A stretch of 64,000 nt of DNA from Octopus vulgaris (taxonomy: Eukaryota). The position numbers were made by a program, and so were the translations under genes. This document shows positions 4,468 through 62,429 of the stretch, piece by piece. Below the pieces are notes generated by a model. It had not been told where the DNA came from. It worked only from the letters and a program-made list of their open reading frames with translations, and did no database searches. The stretch lies in the NCBI GenBank assembly GCA_951406725.2, contig OX597814.1:203174001-203238000 (forward strand). The letters are read 5' to 3'. Every line of letters begins with the position of its first letter. Positions within the stretch are counted from its first letter, which is position 1.

Positions 4468-5584
4468 TAACTTATAAAACAAGGGCAAAAGAAAAAATTC
4501 TAATGCCAAATATGCCAAAAATAGACAAATTGTCAATAACCATTATAATTTATCACTATTAACATGCGTCTCAAAACTAGCCGACAGAAATTTCTAAAAA
4601 ATTCCGTTATTACCGTATTGGTCCCAATTTCAGAGTTAATTCATAAGAAATTTCTCCTATTGGCATTAGAATTTTTTCTTTTGTCCTTGTTTTATAAGTT
4701 ATTTATAAATTTAACCTTTAAAGGTATTTTTTAATATGCTGGCCATTGATATAATTTTTTTCGAAAAATTGTATCCTATATTAGATATAAATTTAATAGT
4801 GTTCACTTCCGGACTCTCTCATTTGGGGTACTTAGGTCTGCTCATGATTTAGTGCTTGCTTTTTCCATGGGTATGAGTAAGTATTTCATTTATGTCTTAC
4901 CAGAATCGAAATCGATCAATGAAAATCGATCAATGGAAATTGCAGATGTGTTACCAGTGCCGGTGGCATGTAAGAGAACCTTCCGTTTTGCAACCGTTGC
5001 CAGCACCGCCCCGTTTCGTGTCCGTTGTCAGCCTCGCCTGGCCCTCGTGCTGGTGGCACATAAAAAGCACCATCCGTTCGTGGCCGTTTGCCAGCTCTGT
5101 CTGGCACCTGTGCGGGTGGCACGTAAAAAGCACCCACTACACTCTTGGAGTGGTTGGCGTTAGGAAGGGCATCCAGCCGTAGAAACACTGCCAGATTTGA
5201 CTGGGCCTGATGAAGCCTTCTGGCTTCACAGACCCCAGTAGAACCATCCAACCCATGCTAGCATGGAAAACGGACGCTAAACGATGATGATGATGATGTA
5301 TTTATCACTGACGAGGAGAAAATTCTTATGAATTAACTCTGAAATTGGAACCAATACGGTAATAATGGAATTTTTTAGAAATTTCTGTCAGCTAGTTTCG
5401 AGACGCATGTTAATAGTGATAAATTATAATGGTTATTGACAATTTGTCTATATTTGGCATTAGAATTTTTTCTTTTGATCTTGTTTTATAAGTTATTTAT
5501 AAATTTAACCTTTAAAGCTATTTTTTAATATGCTGGCCATTGATAAAAAATTTTTTCGAAAAATTGTATCCTATATTAGATATA
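4468..5584. mobile_element. Penelope pLTR/retrozyme-like element: inverted arm plus partial tandem copy, interrupted by a SINE-like repeat
   Basis: 4468-4658 is the reverse complement of 5314-5495; 4660-4789 is a direct repeat of 5454-5584; both ends in (TA)n; hammerhead motif at 5302-5362. Confidence 0.7.
5302..5362 (+). ncRNA. Type I hammerhead-like motif
   Basis: UUAUCA-CUGACGA-GGAG[aaaauucuuaugaauuaa]CUCU-GAAA-UUGG aa CCAA UA-CGGUAA; first stem I pair is mismatched. Confidence 0.62.
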
Positions 5585-16687: not shown

Positions 16688-16910
16688 ACAAAATCTCATG
16701 GGTTCCCAAGGGTCATATGGACCCCTGTTTAGAACCAGTGTGTTAGACAATGTGGTCCTTGACAAAATCTCAAGGGTTCCCAAGGGTCATATGGACCCCT
16801 GTTTAGAACCAGTGTGTTAGACAATGTGGTCCTTGACAAAATCTTATGGGTTCCCAAGGCTCATATGGACCCCTGTTTAGAACCAGTGTGTTAGACAATG
16901 TGGTCCTTGA
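16688..16910. repeat. 3 x 74-bp tandem repeat
   Basis: Units start at 16688, 16762, 16836; near-identical. Confidence 0.95.
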
Positions 16911-17816
16911 TATGCAAAAAAAACAAAAAAAAACTCAGAAAACAGGAAGGTCATGGTTGGATTATAGGTCTGTCCAATAAAACTGACCTGGGGCTAAACA
17001 CCAACTGATCAACAAATTGCCATAACTCCACCACCGCTACCACTACCACTCATGTAAATCTAGATGGATACATGTAAAATAGCAACAGCAACAACAACAA
17101 CAAAACTGTTTGCGTTTTTGTTTAAATATCTGTAGATATTATCTGGAGTGCTTGCTAGGTTCAAATGGGAAATGAAAGGAAGTAGATCTAATATATGTAT
17201 AAAGTCAATGATTTACATCACATCCATTTAGAATGTTCTACATATAAACACATTCTGTTGTGCTGGGATTCACGCACCAGTAAGATTCAAACCAATATTG
17301 TAAGAAAGATGGGATTAGAAAGTATAATCAAGATATCTTTAATTCATGCGCCATCTCTCTTAAACATTTTATTTCCTTTCCCATTTTAGCAATATACCAA
17401 TTTTATTTATTTATTTTTTTTAAGCAGCTTCAAAAATATGGGAAAATTGTAGAATATGAAATACGTAATCAGAAATTCATATAATTGTTACAGATTCTTC
17501 GATGATTTATTCATGAGAAATTTCTCTATAGTTTTCTGATATTTCCATATCTGAATAGAAACACTCCATTTTGAAAATATCCCCTCAAACTTGACAATTT
17601 TAACTTTATTTCATTTTTAATATAGGATTATTCAGATGACAAACATAAAAAAAAAGAGAATCGTGTACGACTAAATCTGGCTTATCGTTCAATTTTCAGT
17701 TATCTCTGTGGTGGGGGTAGGAGCAGGGTGGATCTGTTGTTGTTGTTTTTCACTTGGAAACAAAATTCTGTTTTAGTTGTGGTGTTTTATTTTGGTGTTT
17801 GTTTTCTCTTTGCCAG

Positions 17817-18968
17817 GCACATCAACTGGAAGTCCAAGATATTGATGCCGGAGAAAATGGTACTGTAACTCTAAGTCTCAATGGAGCAACTCAGTTTCGT
17901 CTTCGCAAAGTCGAAAACTCTAGCTATGTTGTTTATGTAAAAGCCAATTGGTCCCTTGACCGTGAATGGCGCAGTAATTACAATGTGAGCATCACTGCTC
18001 GTGATGGGGGTGACCCACCAAGGTCATCTGTCATATATTTATTCATTAAAGTTTTAGATGTTAATGATCACAGTCCACAGTTTCAGTATACTTCATATAA
18101 TATGACAGCCACTGAAAACTCCCCCCTTGGTAAAGTTATTGGCTATGTTCATGCTGATGATGAAGACTCCGAGGTCAATGGAGAAATTGAATATTCTATT
18201 GTGAGTGGATCAATGGAGATGTTTGAAATTGGTGAGAAAAATGGCAGTATATATATCAGCCAACCTAAACTGGATCGAGAGAAGAAAGACATTTATCACA
18301 TCACTGTGCGTGCACAAGATAAAGGTTTTCCTCGAAAGCAGGCACATACAGTTGTGAACGTATATGTTGAAGATGTCAATGATAATGCACCAGAGTTTTC
18401 GCAACAGGCCTACACAGTTACTGTTCCTGAAAACACACCAGTTGGAGACATTATTTTCCAGGTGGATGCACGTGACAGGGATTTAGGAGCTGGCGGTCAG
18501 GTCTCTTTCTTTTTGGAGCCTCGTTCCAAATTTTTCTACATAGACAAGAACAATGGTAGTATCTACTTGAACAAATCTCTTGACTATGAAACGACAAGGA
18601 AACATTTTACTTTCAACATTCTTTCTCACGATCATGGCACCCCGAGCATCAGTTCAATTGCTCCCATTGAAATAAAAGTCACTGATGTAAATGATGAAGT
18701 TCCTGAATTCTCTCAGCCGTTGTATGTTAGCCAGATCACCAAAACTTCGCCAATAGGAAAAGCCATTACAGTCGTCCAAGCAAAAGATACAGATTCAGAG
18801 ATCATTTATTACTTGACACCGTCATCTTCTGAGTTCACCATTGACAAATCAGGTGTCATTGTCCAAACTGAGAACATTGATAAAACAATATTCTCACCAG
18901 GTACGCTGTATAAGGAATTTAATGTCGTGGCTACTGACTCAATCCACACCGCCAATACATCTGTTCAG
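17817..18968 (+). CDS. Cadherin exon 4 (AHQLEVQDIDAGENG...ANTSVQ), nearly 4 EC repeats
   Basis: ttgccAG / GTAGGT; 1152 nt; LDRE, LDYE, DVNDHSP, DVNDNAP, DVNDEVP motifs. Confidence 0.96.
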
Positions 18969-19078
18969 GTAGGTCATTATTTAACCCTTTTTGTTACCAC
19001 ATCTCCATTGAAATACACTGCCTCTGTTTCAATTAATTTTTGAAATAATGAAGAATTTAGTAAAATAACTTTGTCGTT

Positions 19079-22840: not shown

Positions 22841-23051
22841 GTGAGTGAGAGAGCAACGCTTACCATCAAAATGAAACTGGGGTATAAATATACAAAGTCC
22901 AATATACCCATCATGACTACTTGTCTAATAAGGGTACACAAGGCACATGCATCACAACCATATGTGCATGACATGGTGGTCTCATACCAAGATAAACAGT
23001 GGAGTTATATCCTGAATAAATAAAGTTTTTAATTAATAGCTGAACAATTAT

Positions 23052-23096
23052 TCTGTGCTGATGAGGGGAAATAACCCAGAAATTGCGATACACGGA
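23052..23096 (+). ncRNA. Type I hammerhead ribozyme, canonical core
   Basis: UCUGUG-CUGAUGA-GGGG aaauaa CCCA-GAAA-UUGCGA UA-CACGGA; stem I extends (AACAAU/AUUGUU); AUA triplet; first stem II position is a G.A mismatch. Confidence 0.78.
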
Positions 23097-25755
23097 TATT
23101 GTTTTGAGCTGAGTGGGGGTGCTAGATTCCCTTGTTTGAAAATATAAGGACACAAATCGTGTCATATAGCCGATTGGAGACGATGTCTCCTGGGGCTAAA
23201 TTACAGCAACATTCATCCTAAACCAGGACTGCCATGTTATGTTGACAAACAATCTTTACTCCTAATGTATCAATATTGTTTTAATTTGAAAATATTCTAA
23301 TTAGTTTTCATAATGATATAACTCAAGTGATATATTTTTTAAACAGTTCAGGTGTAAACTATTTCTTGTGCTCATCACCCTGACCCTTGTTCCTCTGTCC
23401 AGCAGCTTACTTCATCATCATCATTTTAACTTCCACTTGTCAAGGTTTGCATGGCTCAGGTGAAATTTGTTGAGGTAGAATTTCTATGATTAAATTCCTA
23501 TCCTGTTACCAACCCTCACTTGTTTACAAACAAGGTAATGTCATCACTTGACCTGACATGTTTTCACAAAGGACAAACGAACGAATGACAGTGTTTGTAT
23601 GAGGATGACACTCACTCTCAACTATCCGATGATGTCAAGAAACTGACACTCCATTGGTTTCAGTGATGAGGGTTCCAGATGATCTAATCAACAGAACAGC
23701 CTGCTTGTGAAATTAACATGCAAGTGGCTGAGTGTTCCACAGACACATGTACTCTTGACATAGTTCTCAGGGAGATTCAGCATGACATTGGGTGTGACAA
23801 GGCTGGCTCTTTGAAATACAGGTACTACTCATTTTTGCCAGCTGAATGGACTGCTGTAATGTGAAATAAAGTGTCTTGCTCAAGGACACAACGTGTCGCC
23901 AGGTATTGAACTCATGACCTTACAATCATGAGCCAAATATCCTAACCATTCAGCTACATGCCTTCATGTGATGTCAAGATAAGGAGACACACACACACAT
24001 ATATACACAAATGGTTGGCTTCTTTCAGTTTCCATCTACCAAATCTGCTCACATGATTCTGGCTCATCTAAGGCCGTAGAAAAGACTTGCCAAAGATACC
24101 ATGAAGTGGGACTGAACCTGAAACCATGTGGTTGGAAAGCAAGCTTCTTAGCCACCCTTTTGTTTGTTTGGGGTTTTTGTTTTGGTTTTTTTTTTTCTTG
24201 CTAATTATTTATCTATTTGGACTTTTTAATGGTGGAAATAGTGTTTGCAAAGATATTTAATTTATTTTTCAAGATCATGACAATCCTAACATCCATCTGT
24301 TCATTTTGACTAATTAAAATAAAGGTTGTCAGAGTAAAAAAAAACAAAATCTTTTAAATGTAATTAATACATAAACAAAAATATTTTAATTGATCAAGCC
24401 ACCTGCTGTTTAAAGTAATCAGAGTAAATTATATATTCTTTAATTAAATATCTCTAAGCACCGACACCATTATCGTTAGCATATTTCCATGCCATGGTTG
24501 TTGTTCTTCACAAAAGATTTCGTGAGTTCTTTTGTCACTAAACACTTCCAGAAAGTAAAACAATTGCATCATGGCAACATCATGTATCAACATGGCAGCT
24601 TTGTTGTGAATGACACAGTTGGATTCCTTAAGTAATTTTTATATTGCCATCACTACTGCTACTACTATCAGTATCATCATCAACACCATCATTGTTTTGT
24701 TTGGCAGACAATGTAATTTAAAAATTGCTCATTACCAAGTTTTTATCTTTGAGCTATCATCATTCATTTAGCGTCCGCTTTCCATCCTAGCATGGGTTGA
24801 ACGGTTCAACTGGGGTCTGGGAAGCCAGAAGGCTGCATCAGGCCCAGTCTGATCTGGCAGTGTTTCTACGGCTGGATGCCCTTCCTAACGCCAACCACTC
24901 CGTGAGTGTAGTGGGTGCTTTTTACGTGCCACCCGCACAGGTGCCAGACGGGGCTGGCAAACGGCCACGGACGGATGGTGCGCTTTTTACGTGCCACCGG
25001 CACGGAGGCCAGTTGGGGCGGCGCTGGGAGCCAGGCAAGGCTGGCAACGGCCACGATCGGATGGTGCTTTTTATGTGCCACCTGCACGGAAGCCAGTCGG
25101 GGCGGCGCTGGCAATGGACATGGTCGGGTGGTGCTCTTTACGTGCCACCGGCACGGGGGCCAGGCGAGGCTGGCAATGGCCACGATCGGATGGTGCTTTT
25201 TACGTGCCAATATACACGTGTGTGTGTGTATGTTTGTGTGTCTGTGTTTGTCCCCCCAACATTGCTCAACAACCGATGCTGGTGTGTTTACATCCCTGTA
25301 ACTTAGCGGTTCGGCTAAAGAGACCGATAGAATAAGTACTAAGCTTACAAAGAATAAGTCCTGGGGTCGATTTGCAACAACTATGCTCGAATGCTGTTTT
25401 TCACATGCCACTGGCACATGTGCCAGTAAGGCTCCACTGGCAATGATCATGTTCGAATGGTGCTTTTCCCCTGTTACCAGCACAGGAGCCAATCCGTGGC
25501 CCTGGCGATGATTACACTCTGATGTGCTTATAATGTTCCACTGGCACGAGTGCCAGTCAGGCAGTACTGTCATCGACCATGCCAGCAATTTTGGTTTTGA
25601 TTTCACTTGCCTCAATAGGTCATATATATGTATGTGTGTATATATATACATGTGTGTGTGTGTGTACATATATATATGTATAAATTATTAAGGTGGCTAG
25701 TTGCAGGTTAAAAACTAAAACGCACATGGTTCTTGTTTATATATATATGTGTGTG

Positions 25756-53785: not shown

Positions 53786-53996
53786 TTCTAGGATGTGGGT
53801 GCTGAGGTTCAACGTTGTAGTACTCAGTTATGGCCCCTTGCATCCTGACCCAAACTCCACAAACATAATCTATGCTTGCATCCTTCCATTGTCAGTAAAA
53901 TAAAATGAAGTTGCAGTGAAATATCGGAATTGATTTCATTGATAATACCACACCCCCTCCTAAAACATGTGGGTTTCTTTCAACATTAGGAAAACA

Positions 53997-54512
53997 CGGG
54001 GTGGCCCAAAAGTGGGTTTACAGTTATTCAACTATCTCTTTCGCTTTCAAATATTAACAGCTTAGATCTTAATTATAAAAACATGACAGTCCCATAAAGG
54101 GAATTACACCACCGCTGTTTAGCCCTAAGAAGCATTGACGCTTCCTGTTGGCTTTGACACATTTCCTGTGTCCTTATATTTGCAAAGGGGAGGCAAGCAC
54201 CCCCACCAGCTAGGACTAGCAACCTGAAGACATGCATGTTTCTGGGTTTTGCCCATCATCAGTCCAGGGTATTAAGTCCTGCTAGTTGAGATACCTGCCA
54301 AACCTTCGCAAATGTATATATTTACAGCGAAATCTATTCACTGGTCACTGTAATTAGAAATATTTCTAATTACATTATTCTATGCTAATTTAGTTAATTT
54401 TGTCAAGTTCCCTTTTCAGTTTGTAAGATAAGAATTTAAATGTAATAAAATGTTTTAAAAGAAATTTAAAGTACGTACATGAAAACTGTAAACCTACTTT
54501 TGGGCCACCCTG
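53997..54512. mobile_element. Tc1/mariner-like MITE containing the hammerhead element
   Basis: 29-bp TIRs C(A/G)GGGTGGCCCAAAAGT(A/G)GGTTTACAGTT; TA at right flank (CA at left). Confidence 0.75.
54223..54268 (-). ncRNA. Type I hammerhead ribozyme, canonical core
   Basis: Minus strand: CCUGGA-CUGAUGA-UGGG caaaa CCCA-GAAA-C AUGCAU GUC-UUCAGG. Stems I and II pair; stem III is palindromic; GUC cleavage triplet; stem I extends further (AGGACU/AGUCCU). Confidence 0.85.
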
Positions 54513-54690
54513 TATTTTCGTATCAGATTTATTTTCCACAAAACGTCTTATTCTGCTGCCACTGCTCAAGGAAAGTAAACTTTGTTTTTCATCTTTTTTC
54601 AAAAGTAATATGTGTGTGTGTGTGTGTGTAAAAAATATTTCTTTATTCATGAAAATTCACAAAGAGAATATATTACTGATTTCTTTGAAG

Positions 54691-59122: not shown

Positions 59123-60747
59123 GTAAGTTTGAGTTTTTCTTTCGATAACTCTTTATTGTGCAAACATCAGACCACAAAATATTTACTGCTTCTAGTACAG
59201 AGACAAGGATAGATTCTTTTAGTGGTGTTGGAGTGGAGATGTTGATTATATCAACTTTAATACTTTATTGGTGGGTTCAATTCCTGTGCAGGGCCACACA
59301 TTGTGCCCTTGAGCAATGTACTTCATTTCACAATCCTCCAGTCAATACGGCTAAAAATGAGCACAAGTCAACTGCTGAGTCAACCCCCCCTCCACCTCAC
59401 ACACACACACACACACATATCCTGGATATTCTGCTGGGTCAAAGGAAAGAAGGAGGCAAGAAGGTGTCTGTATCTACTTCTGACTAATTAGGCATCTAAA
59501 ACAGTTAATGAAAGCTTAGTACATGCTACCTTAGCGAAGTTGCAAGTGGCAGCTATGGACAACTTGTTTTTTTTTTTACTTTGTAGATGCATTATTTTTA
59601 TTGACTTCCAGAAGAAAAACAAACAAAATTGGCAACAGCAGGGTTTGAACTCAGAACATAAAGAGCCAGGACAAATATACATATGCCAAAAGCATTTTGT
59701 TGGACATTCCAACAATTCTGCCATATTTTCCTTTATCCCATTCTTTAATGGAAACTAATTAACTCTAATGAAAAACACTTCCTTTTTCATTAATTAATAT
59801 GGCATTTGTTTCAGGGTTGCAAGCTAGCAGAATCGTTAGCACACCGGGCGAATTACTTAGCAGCATTTCGCCTGCTGTTTCATTCTGAGTTCAAATTCCA
59901 CTGAGGTCAACTTTGCCTTTCATTCTTTCGGAGTCGATTAAATAAGTACCAGTTACGCACTGGGGGTCGATGTAATCGACTTAATTTTTTTGTCTGTCCT
60001 TCTTTGCATTAAAGAAATCAATATGGCATTTGTTTCTGTTGTTTTTTTTATAATATAACAAAATGGGTTTTTTTTGCACATAAAATTATAATGGACAGTT
60101 TTAACTCAACCCTTTAGCTTTTAAACCACTCATATACCAAGGCCAAATATTCAATGTGTTTTATGTTCAAACTGGCCAGATTCAGCCTCTCACACCTACA
60201 AATAAACCATCACATCAAAACCACAAGATAATGCAGGATTAATTGAAAACAATAAGTATTATATTTAAAAGAGTAATCTGAATGCTTAAAGGGTAAAATA
60301 TAACTATTTAAAACTGTTTTGTATGAAAGAACCAGAAGCAGTCTGGGGTAAGATGGTACCAAAACAGGTTTGCTCTTAATAGGAAAATACTCAAAGACAG
60401 CCAGCTGGCAAAATCATTAACACACTGGGTGAAATGCTTAGCAGCATTTTATTCATCTTTATGTTCTGGGTTCAAATTCTGCCGAGGTCAGCTTTGTCAT
60501 TCATCCTTACTGGGTCAATAAAATAAGCACCGGTTGAACACTGGGATCAATGTAATCGACTTACCCCTCCCCCAAAATTGCTGGCCTTGTGCCAAAATTT
60601 GAAACCAATATGAAAATACTCTGGAACCTACAATACGTGGTCAGCTACAATTTTAAATGTTCTCTTACAATATTTTTATTTTGCTTTTCTTTTGAAGCAA
60701 TATCAATGATTTTAGAAAGCCCTGATTGTACGTTTTATATTTTACAG

Positions 60748-60972
60748 AATACACAAGGAAACAAAGAATGGTGGCTTCCAGAAGCCTTAGATCCTGATGA
60801 AGGTCAGAATGCTAAGGTGAAATACAGTGTACAGTTTGTACCCAACGAAGATCCAGAGATGACAGCATTGTTTGATGAGGTATTCTCCGTCAGCAAAGAC
60901 TTACGCAAACTTATCATCAAAAAACCTTTACCGACAAGCAGTTGGAGACCAGAAAATTTCAGTGTTGCACTT
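60748..60972 (+). CDS. Cadherin exon 16 (NTQGNKEWWLPEALDPDEGQN...FSVAL)
   Basis: ttacAG / GTAAGT; 225 nt; DPDEGQN motif. Confidence 0.9.
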
Positions 60973-62429
60973 GTAAGTTCTTCTAAACCTAACCCTAACC
61001 ATGTCTACATTTCTTGATTTATTTCAAGGAAAGGCAAGATTCCACTTTCCTAGTTATTTTATTCAAATTAAGAATCTTAAAAGGAAAACTAGCTCAGGCT
61101 AATGTAAGTTCTAAAATATCTTAATGATAGCCTCCACTTCAGTAAAGTATATACAAATCAAAGTCCAAAAATAGCAACTAAATCACTCTTAGATCATGCT
61201 CCACTGTCTGAAAATAATTTAGTATATACATTGGACTATGTAGTGCTTGACCGTTGTCATCTGCCTGCTGGATCGTGCATGGCCTGAGACTAAATAACTG
61301 TAGGTACAGGTATGGTTGTGTGGTAAGAAGCTTGCTTCCCAACCACATGGTTCCAGGTTCAGTCCCACAGCATGGCACCTTGGAAAAGTGTCTTTTACTA
61401 TAGCCCTGAGCTAACCAAAACCTTCTGACTGGATTTGGTAGACAGAATCTGAAAGAAGCCTGTCATGTGTGTGTATGTGTTTGTCCCACACCATCACTTG
61501 ACGACCAGTGTTGGTTTGTTTACGTCCCCATAACTTGAAAGTTCAGCAAAAAGAAGCTGACAGAAGCTTTAATAAAAATAAGTACTATGGAGTGGTGCAG
61601 GTAGTGATTTGGTTGACTAAAAGTTCTTCAAGGTGGGGCCTCAGCATGGCCGCAGTCCAATGACTGAAAAATGTAAAAGAGAGAGAATATCAATAGCAGT
61701 GGATAATGTTTGCGTATTGTGTCGAAAATAATTCTGAACATTTTTAAAGTAAAATAAAACTGTTTCAAATTAAAATGGTAAGCTGGGGACAGTTTCTACC
61801 TTTCATTACTCGGGGCAGGGCGGGTGGGGAGTGTAATTGACTAACCCCCACCCCTCAAAATTACTGGCCTTGTATCTGAATCAGAAGACATTTAAAGGCA
61901 GTAAGCTTCATTAGCATGGAGGTACATGGCCTAGTGGTTAGAGCAGTGGGATCGCGGGTTCGAATCTCAGACCGGGTGATGTGTGTGTTTGTGAGCAAAA
62001 CACCTCTAAGCTCCATGCGGCTCCGACAGGAGGTAATGGTGAACCTCTGCTGACTTTTTCACCACACCTTTCTCTCACTCTTTCCTCCTGCATCTAGCAG
62101 CTCACCTGCAATGGACCAGCGTCCTGTCCAGGTGGAGAACCTATATGCCAATGAAACCAGGAAACCAGCCCTTATGAGCCAGACATGGCTCAAGAAGGAA
62201 CAAACAACAACAAACTTCATTAGCACATCAAACAAAATACTCAGTAGCATTTCTTCTGGCTTCTTTTTATGTTCTGAGTTCAAATCCTGCCAAGGTCAAC
62301 ATAGCCTTTCATCTTTTGAGGGCCAATAAAAATGTATCACTTGAGCACTGGGATCAATGTTATCAACTAACACCCTTAACCTTAAATAGCTGACCGTGGG
62401 CCAAAATTTGAAATACTCATTATTGCTAC

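Follow-up and report, generated by a model that had tools for sequence, protein, structure and literature searches.

The locus considered here raises the question of what kind of element carries two hammerhead ribozymes, each followed by the same body of sequence, where such an element begins and ends, and which enzyme spread it. The two copies lie on opposite strands of a 64,000-nucleotide stretch of Octopus vulgaris DNA (the window). An initial annotation had read them as a SINE-like or retrozyme RNA of about 200 nt, with a 5' end made by self-cleavage rather than a tRNA promoter and a 3' tail, GGGCTAAA, possibly borrowed from a LINE.

Type I hammerhead motifs are indeed present at +23058 and -54262, and the body that the two copies share is real. 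Its alignment scores 89, a value that none of 2,000 dinucleotide shuffles reached (0/2,000; mean 19.9, highest 44); by BLASTN the match has an E of 1.7e-7 within the window. The covariation first noticed in stem I also stands, since six of six pairs form in both copies though the sequences differ. Rfam gave no match at gathering score in the window, nor any at E<=1 to the ribozymes at four family loci. Motif and covariation are therefore the basis of the hammerhead call; the weak Rfam microRNA matches fell only on microsatellites or a palindromic junction.

The limits first drawn around the element, 23038-23210, proved wrong, and each copy is a fragment of its own larger family, A or B (Table 1). 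Stem I of copy A pairs 23052-57 with 23091-96, and its stem II has 3 bp with a mismatch at the base. Stem III is near-palindromic in copy A and palindromic in copy B; the copy A stem holds a U-G wobble, likely a product of CpG decay, where the family consensus is a perfect palindrome. The upstream partner of the G-rich/C-rich segment has mostly been lost in this truncated copy. The supposed tail, GGGCTAAA at 23193-23200, closes the AGCC...GGCT stem and is internal to the element.

Copy B starts at the motif of the second fixed 3' site (S2) and stops about 25 nt before the first (S1), and its hammerhead forms the tip of a stem of about 50 bp. Its long arm has neither fixed 3' end, and the copy has no target duplication; the inverted mini-arm beside it makes a perfect palindrome with 54349-54361. 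The short element into which it inserted, which we take to be Tc1/mariner-like, is found in an empty version elsewhere (L165:2912-3150). The TATA-like box may be a promoter.

Table 1. Features of the two copies and of a neighbouring repeat, in window coordinates
Feature	Position	Strand	Remark
Family A copy	23037..23262	+	single 5'-truncated arm, monomer ~71 to ~297 of 350
Family A copy, 3' terminus	23262	+	first fixed 3' site S1 of family A
Type I hammerhead motif, copy A	23052..23096	+	core from 23058, predicted cut after 23090
G-rich/C-rich segment, copy A	23113..23131	+	3' strand of long stem I extension
Conserved GACAC/GTGTC hairpin, copy A	23148..23163	+	
AGCC...GGCT stem with inner hairpin, copy A	23168..23200	+	
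Hairpin H1 (23230-47) and S1 3' end	23230..23262	+	3' end 13-16 nt past H1
Family B copy	54080..54361	-	monomer ~346 round to ~273 of 354
Type I hammerhead motif, copy B	54223..54268	-	core -54262, predicted cut between 54229 and 54228
TATA-like box, copy B	54309..54324	-	~55 nt upstream of ribozyme core
Inverted mini-arm, 11-13 nt	54362..54374	+	reads as S2 end of family B
Host element of copy B	53987..54522		short, DNA-transposon-like, 39-nt terminal inverted repeats
Outside the element: end of another repeat, ~150 nt	16957..17007	+	only CCTGGGGCTAAA motif in common

The surroundings include a cadherin-repeat coding stretch at 17721-19040 (+; Pfam PF00028) and a second cadherin-like frame at 60556-61014 (+) without a Pfam match. 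Copy A lies 4 kb past the first of these on the same strand and might be intronic. A third hammerhead motif, at 5300-5480 (+; core 5308), belongs to an unrelated repeat family with 74-77% matches in L110, L169 and L194. Several unrelated repeats with hammerheads are plentiful in this genome: a strict descriptor counted 15 motifs in a 600 kb random sample (L137-L196) and 0-1 in shuffled sequence.

Two sister families within a larger clan

In place of the 200 nt first proposed, natural monomers measure 350 nt in family A and 354 nt in family B. Both units are circularly permuted and occur in tandem and in inverted arms, and comparison of flanks revealed the same sequence before the ribozyme and far downstream of it, as well as arrays of two or three units (a three-unit family A array is represented at L032/L035). 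The A and B monomers can be aligned over their whole length, with 239 identities, 92 mismatches and 42 gaps in the pairwise comparison and 55% identity in a five-way alignment. GC content is 39% in A and 45% in B, and the longest stop-free frames, 73 and 70 codons respectively, encode no reverse transcriptase (RT) or GIY-YIG domain. With no B box in either monomer and no tRNA gene at four family loci, the retrozyme half of the original proposal and its absence of a tRNA promoter are supported; the SINE half is not.

The searched genome comprises 2.8 Gb in 227 contigs. Copy A gave 2,912 first-look candidates, of which 40 were scored (best 92-94% identical), and copy B gave 2,470, again with 40 scored (best 92-96%); in neither search did the other family appear among the matches listed. 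The loci studied are the top-scoring matches and not a random sample. Copies of A diverge from their majority sequence by 3.8% (n=29, one duplicate locus excluded) and those of B by 3.3% (n=30), which marks both as old bursts, and about 80% of the differences are transitions. The hammerhead core is intact in 23 of 29 A copies and 29 of 30 B copies, all picked with ribozyme-spanning queries.

At least five further sister families exist: C, C2, D and the single copies E and F. Family C has a 360-nt unit in arrays whose members are 99-100% identical, and family D a 353-nt unit at 98-99% identity; both are young. Family C2 was seen at L137. Unit lengths met across the clan are 350, 354, 360, 359 and 353 nt, and five of the monomers share 49-77% identity. 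One family C array, with 100% identical 360-nt units, sits at L108:3136-4553, within the (TA)n that lies in the 3' region of a Penelope-like element. A clan profile found 10 loci at E<=2.3e-5 in 60 random 10-kb stretches (600 kb), two of which, L137 and L147, had contributed rows to the profile or led to such rows and had previously been found by BLAST. Extrapolated to the whole genome, this amounts to about 47,000 loci (95% range 22,000-86,000); none of the 10 is more than 90% like A or B.

Family A was also sought in three raw cDNA runs from a related organism. Family C gave only 2, 0 and 0 reads there and is nearly missing from that organism's DNA contigs, so the runs probably come from another species. 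The family A array drew 1,472-1,929 reads per 11.5-12.9 million, in both directions alike. Between 68 and 75% of these continue into unrelated sequence and look like fragments inside host transcripts. Reads pile up at position 1602 of the array and elsewhere, with no pile-up at the cut sites 1555, 1905 and 2255 in what is probably another species. Family A words occur in runs of five organisms.

Ends of the insertions and the enzyme they point to

The 5' ends were examined with queries beginning at the predicted cut, which gave 30 B loci and, after removal of one duplicate, 29 A loci. Retrieved in this way by the body alone, 45 of the 59 copies reach over the whole ribozyme, which upholds the original linkage of ribozyme and body, and 54 run more than 5 nt upstream of the cut. 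Since 54 of 59 copies pass the cut, self-cleavage does not define insertion, contrary to the first reading of the 5' end. What survives of that reading is a small excess of starts at the cut: three copies begin exactly there (P 0.003) and five within 0-5 nt (P 0.03), where the background is 0.29 starts per nt. This excess suggests that a minority of copies may derive from self-cleaved linear RNA templates. Families C and D provided no such starts (0/19 and 0/16).

Nor is GGGCTAAA a tail. Homology runs about 60-120 nt beyond it and extends up to 125 nt upstream of the cut, and the 3' ends of A and B sit 60-120 nt past it, at two fixed sites. Arms end at S1 or S2 in 68 of 83 cases in family A and 48 of 52 in family B (116/135 together, from 45 A and 44 B distinct loci), where the intervals counted as S1 and S2 span about one tenth of the unit. 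Copy A of the window is such a single arm, ending at S1. The two sites are 53-56 nt apart in A and B and 43 nt apart in C.

Among 49 pairs of head-to-head arms from families A-D, 37 have both ends fixed, and all 37 combine one S1 with one S2; no S1/S1 or S2/S2 pair was seen among these 37 classifiable pairs. In the remaining 12, one end lies elsewhere. Target duplications (score >=8) flank 25 of 40 A/B pairs and measure 9-16 bp, mostly 12-13, compared with a rate of 2.2% in 1,560 mismatched control pairs. Arms longer than one unit number 9 of 83 in A and 12 of 52 in B.

A similar end had been reported at about 16985, on another repeat. The resemblance amounts to a 12-nt identity (E 1.9) on a different repeat of about 150 nt, which has 12-23 nt in common with family A and no clan-profile match at E<=10; as a tail donor it was rejected on these grounds. 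Such repeats are old, end in CCTGGGGCTAAA and a CAA-rich run, and stand in tandem in L112 and L115 (among L112-L116). The 16985 site gives no support to a tail borrowed from a LINE, though clan and repeat may have a small motif in common. Three near-identical 74-bp tandem units (16688-16910) lie just upstream of it. Membership of GGGCTAAA in a ribozyme of HDV-like or twister type was considered and set aside as well; the neighbouring elements that the consensus structures require were not seen.

The insertion ends of A and B resemble those of Penelope-type elements. With two fixed 3' sites, and one of each per pair, the footprint fits a Penelope RT. In vitro, a Penelope protein cuts both strands of AT-rich DNA, two RT start sites bound the genomic tail, and ribozyme cleavage is unnecessary for insertion (PMC11167929); in genomes, Penelope elements have an inverted arm and a tail at one end only (PMC8557442).

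Two Penelope-like families of this genome were compared as possible partners. The first, a young family whose 775-aa ORFs are intact and which we take to be Neptune-type, was retrieved with a Penelope-like fragment adjoining a B copy (L020). Its two 3' ends are 33-35 nt apart, and all 4 pairs in which both are fixed have one of each. These ends are preceded by a TATA box and then a hammerhead-like motif with a U3-A8 core, a variant that can be active. Members lie at L083, L110 (G000:C11:54592500-54601000) and about 25 more loci, inserted in (AT)n; the 33-35-nt tail is optional, and in the youngest subfamily GAAA has become GCAA, older ones retaining GAAA. The second, a Poseidon-type family with its own minimal hammerhead, adjoining at 10 of 30 loci (L197-L226), is abundant and decayed (5,694 candidates). 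Apart from clan copies residing there, neither the Neptune-type (30 + 20) nor the Poseidon-type (30) loci align to A, B or C. The A, B and Neptune-type elements all have an end at TTTCTAAT, which is a weak hint only, because that site is distal in A and B and proximal in Neptune; the common end may reflect AT-rich targets. At L020:1-1737 a B arm starts head to head with a Penelope-like coding fragment on the opposite strand, possibly a chimeric two-armed insertion.

RNA structure kept across the clan

Five families keep the same order of parts. The 5' portion comprises a TATA-like box, about 55 nt of sequence, the hammerhead and the partner strand of those 55 nt. It is followed by the GACAC/GTGTC hairpin, the AGCC...GGCT stem with its inner hairpin, GGGCTAAA, H1, S1, a last hairpin and S2. 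The TATA-like box is aligned about 55 nt upstream of the core in 5 of 5 families compared. What had been called the body has a first half that pairs with sequence lying 5' of the ribozyme, and the run GTGGGGGTGCT..TCCC noted there is the 3' strand of the extended stem I. In 5 of 5 families the upstream strand of this extension pairs best with its own family's downstream strand.

In stem I itself, over six families (A, B, C, C2, D and F), 36 of 36 pairs form within a family, partly by construction because the cut site was chosen for best pairing, against 116 of 180 when strands are crossed between families, and double-sided change occurs at all six positions. These pairs were counted by anchoring, as family B is out of register in stem I in the MAFFT alignment, on which RNAalifold found double-sided change in 15 of 35 pairs. 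The GGGCT motif closes an internal stem whose pairs covary. H1 sits 12-17 nt ahead of S1. Fold z-scores are -5.5 for the cut-to-cut A monomer and -6.6 for copy B of the window.

Stem III, palindromic or nearly so, does not fold by itself but self-dimerises at -5.9 to -13.3 kcal/mol, the layout of dimeric animal hammerheads (PMC4209133). The core, the stems and the palindromic stem III are retained across six families at about 50% identity. Against this, family A has a mismatch at the base of stem II.

The hairpins downstream of the ribozyme admit a further, tentative reading. Penelope RT is a telomerase-related enzyme, and the GACAC/GUGUC hairpin, the AGCC...GGCU stem and H1, kept across at least seven families at about 50% identity, might form a handle through which a putative circular RNA captures a dimeric Penelope RT and sets its two start sites, in the manner of a telomerase-RNA-like template element.

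Known retrozymes, a proposed route and its alternatives

The closest known elements are the non-LTR retrozymes of animals (Cervera and de la Pena 2020, PMC7229834), which in mussels measure 350-390 bp. Like them, A and B have a type I hammerhead in a non-coding tandem unit of about 350 nt (the range for retrozymes being ~170-450 bp), low GC (<50%), a highly self-paired RNA, target duplications of more than 4 bp and co-existing Penelope-like elements. The main text of that paper has no cephalopod example (0 matches to 'octopus' or 'cephalopod'), and its passages on these elements do not describe a body conserved across families. Penelope elements are named there as candidate mobilisers, a route proposed and not shown; circles and cleavage were shown for those retrozymes and are predicted here.

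Type I hammerheads also mark the vertebrate non-LTR retrozymes, which likewise occur as single, dimeric and multimeric units (Li, Clavereau, Pollet 2026, 10.64898/2026.07.22.740005). The frog members are related to the pseudo-LTRs (pLTRs) of Penelope elements and were proposed to be non-autonomous derivatives of them. They differ from A and B in that their link is pLTR sequence similarity, of which none was found to the Neptune-type and Poseidon-type loci sampled here, where the link is the insertion footprint; the sampling described in that study includes no mollusc.

Poseidon PAc (PMC11167929; layouts in PMC8557442) also has two fixed RT start sites, an optional tail, an inverted 5'-truncated arm, partial tandems and a hammerhead. 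Unlike the endonuclease-positive Penelope-like elements of those papers, A and B have no RT/GIY-YIG ORF, and their tail is 53-56 nt (43 nt in C) rather than 30-40 nt. With tRNA-derived SINEs the two families share a short, non-coding, dispersed habit and a borrowed RT; they lack a tRNA head, a B box and a single LINE-like 3' end, and they are circularly permuted, with two-armed insertions. A and B are best placed as new members of the animal non-LTR retrozymes rather than as a SINE carrying a LINE tail. Among the papers listed in literature searches none treats cephalopod retrozymes, though supplements, subscription journals, Repbase or Dfam may record these families.

The window copies are, with high probability, truncated copies of two sister non-LTR retrozyme families likely spread by a Penelope-like element. 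The proposed route would begin with read-through transcription of a tandem array. Two hammerheads are predicted to pair through their palindromic stems III and to excise a monomer whose ends would be held by the stem I of about 50 bp, and with moderate confidence we infer that this monomer would be ligated into a circle. The footprint at the insertions is that of a target cut with a 12-14-nt stagger, each DNA end priming at a different fixed site, S1 or S2; the outcome would be arms set back to back, tandem runs and 5' truncation at random points. Later decay has taken A and B about 3-4% from their majority sequences, and C and D remain young. The cleavage and circle steps may not hold, because insertion in vitro is independent of ribozyme cleavage (PMC11167929) and cleavage failed in 8 of 9 dimers of frog retrozymes (10.64898/2026.07.22.740005).

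That doubt leads to the best of the alternatives, in which the same element and Penelope machinery are at work and the template is an uncut linear multimer, the ribozyme being dispensable and no circle forming. An uncut template would readily yield arms that pass the cut (54/59) or exceed one unit (9/83 in A, 12/52 in B), features that a circle explains equally well, and ribozyme mutants had no effect on insertion in vitro (PMC11167929). In the L032/L035 array, moreover, private changes are common to two units and absent from the third. A dispensable ribozyme does not sit well with the retention of core, stems and palindromic stem III in six families at such low identity, nor with the few arms whose start coincides with the cut, and mussel retrozymes of this size form abundant circles (PMC7229834, section 14). 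We consider the uncut multimer possible, at well under even chances.

A markedly less probable alternative is that A and B are not independent families at all, being 5'-truncated pLTR fragments of an autonomous Penelope-like element. The insertion footprint is the same in kind as that of Penelope elements, frog retrozymes are related to pLTRs (10.64898/2026.07.22.740005), and the Poseidon-type elements of this genome have a hammerhead of their own. Against this, long arms run round into the start of their own unit and not into coding sequence. Penelope coding fragments occur in 5 distinct loci among 150 clan loci (482 kb, duplicates included), none directly upstream on the same strand, compared with 3 in 600 kb of random DNA. 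Penelope fragments were not named by Pfam.

The original picture, a SINE-like RNA of about 200 nt with a 5' end at the ribozyme cut and a 3' GGGCTAAA tail from a LINE, is very improbable: it can draw on the few starts at the cut (3/59 exact, 5/59 within 5 nt) and on another repeat's ending in CCTGGGGCTAAA and a CAA-rich run, but most copies extend upstream of the cut, 116 of 135 A/B arm ends lie at S1 or S2 beyond the supposed tail, GGGCT closes a covarying internal stem, and both tandem arrays and insertions with two inverted arms are foreign to SINEs.

Returning to retrozymes spread by a Penelope-like element, the class itself is already known, and it is the clan-wide conserved RNA structure that is new here. 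Penelope-like elements have so far been proposed, and not shown, to be the enzyme source that spreads animal retrozymes. The footprint of four families fits the mechanism of two start sites that was measured in vitro with a Penelope protein (PMC11167929), and the conserved clan hairpins point to possible features of enzyme recognition. If the handle reading is true, the conserved body would be part of an RNA machine and not filler. One genome has both the young families C and D and a young Penelope ORF that is intact, which makes mobilisation of retrozymes in trans testable in vitro.
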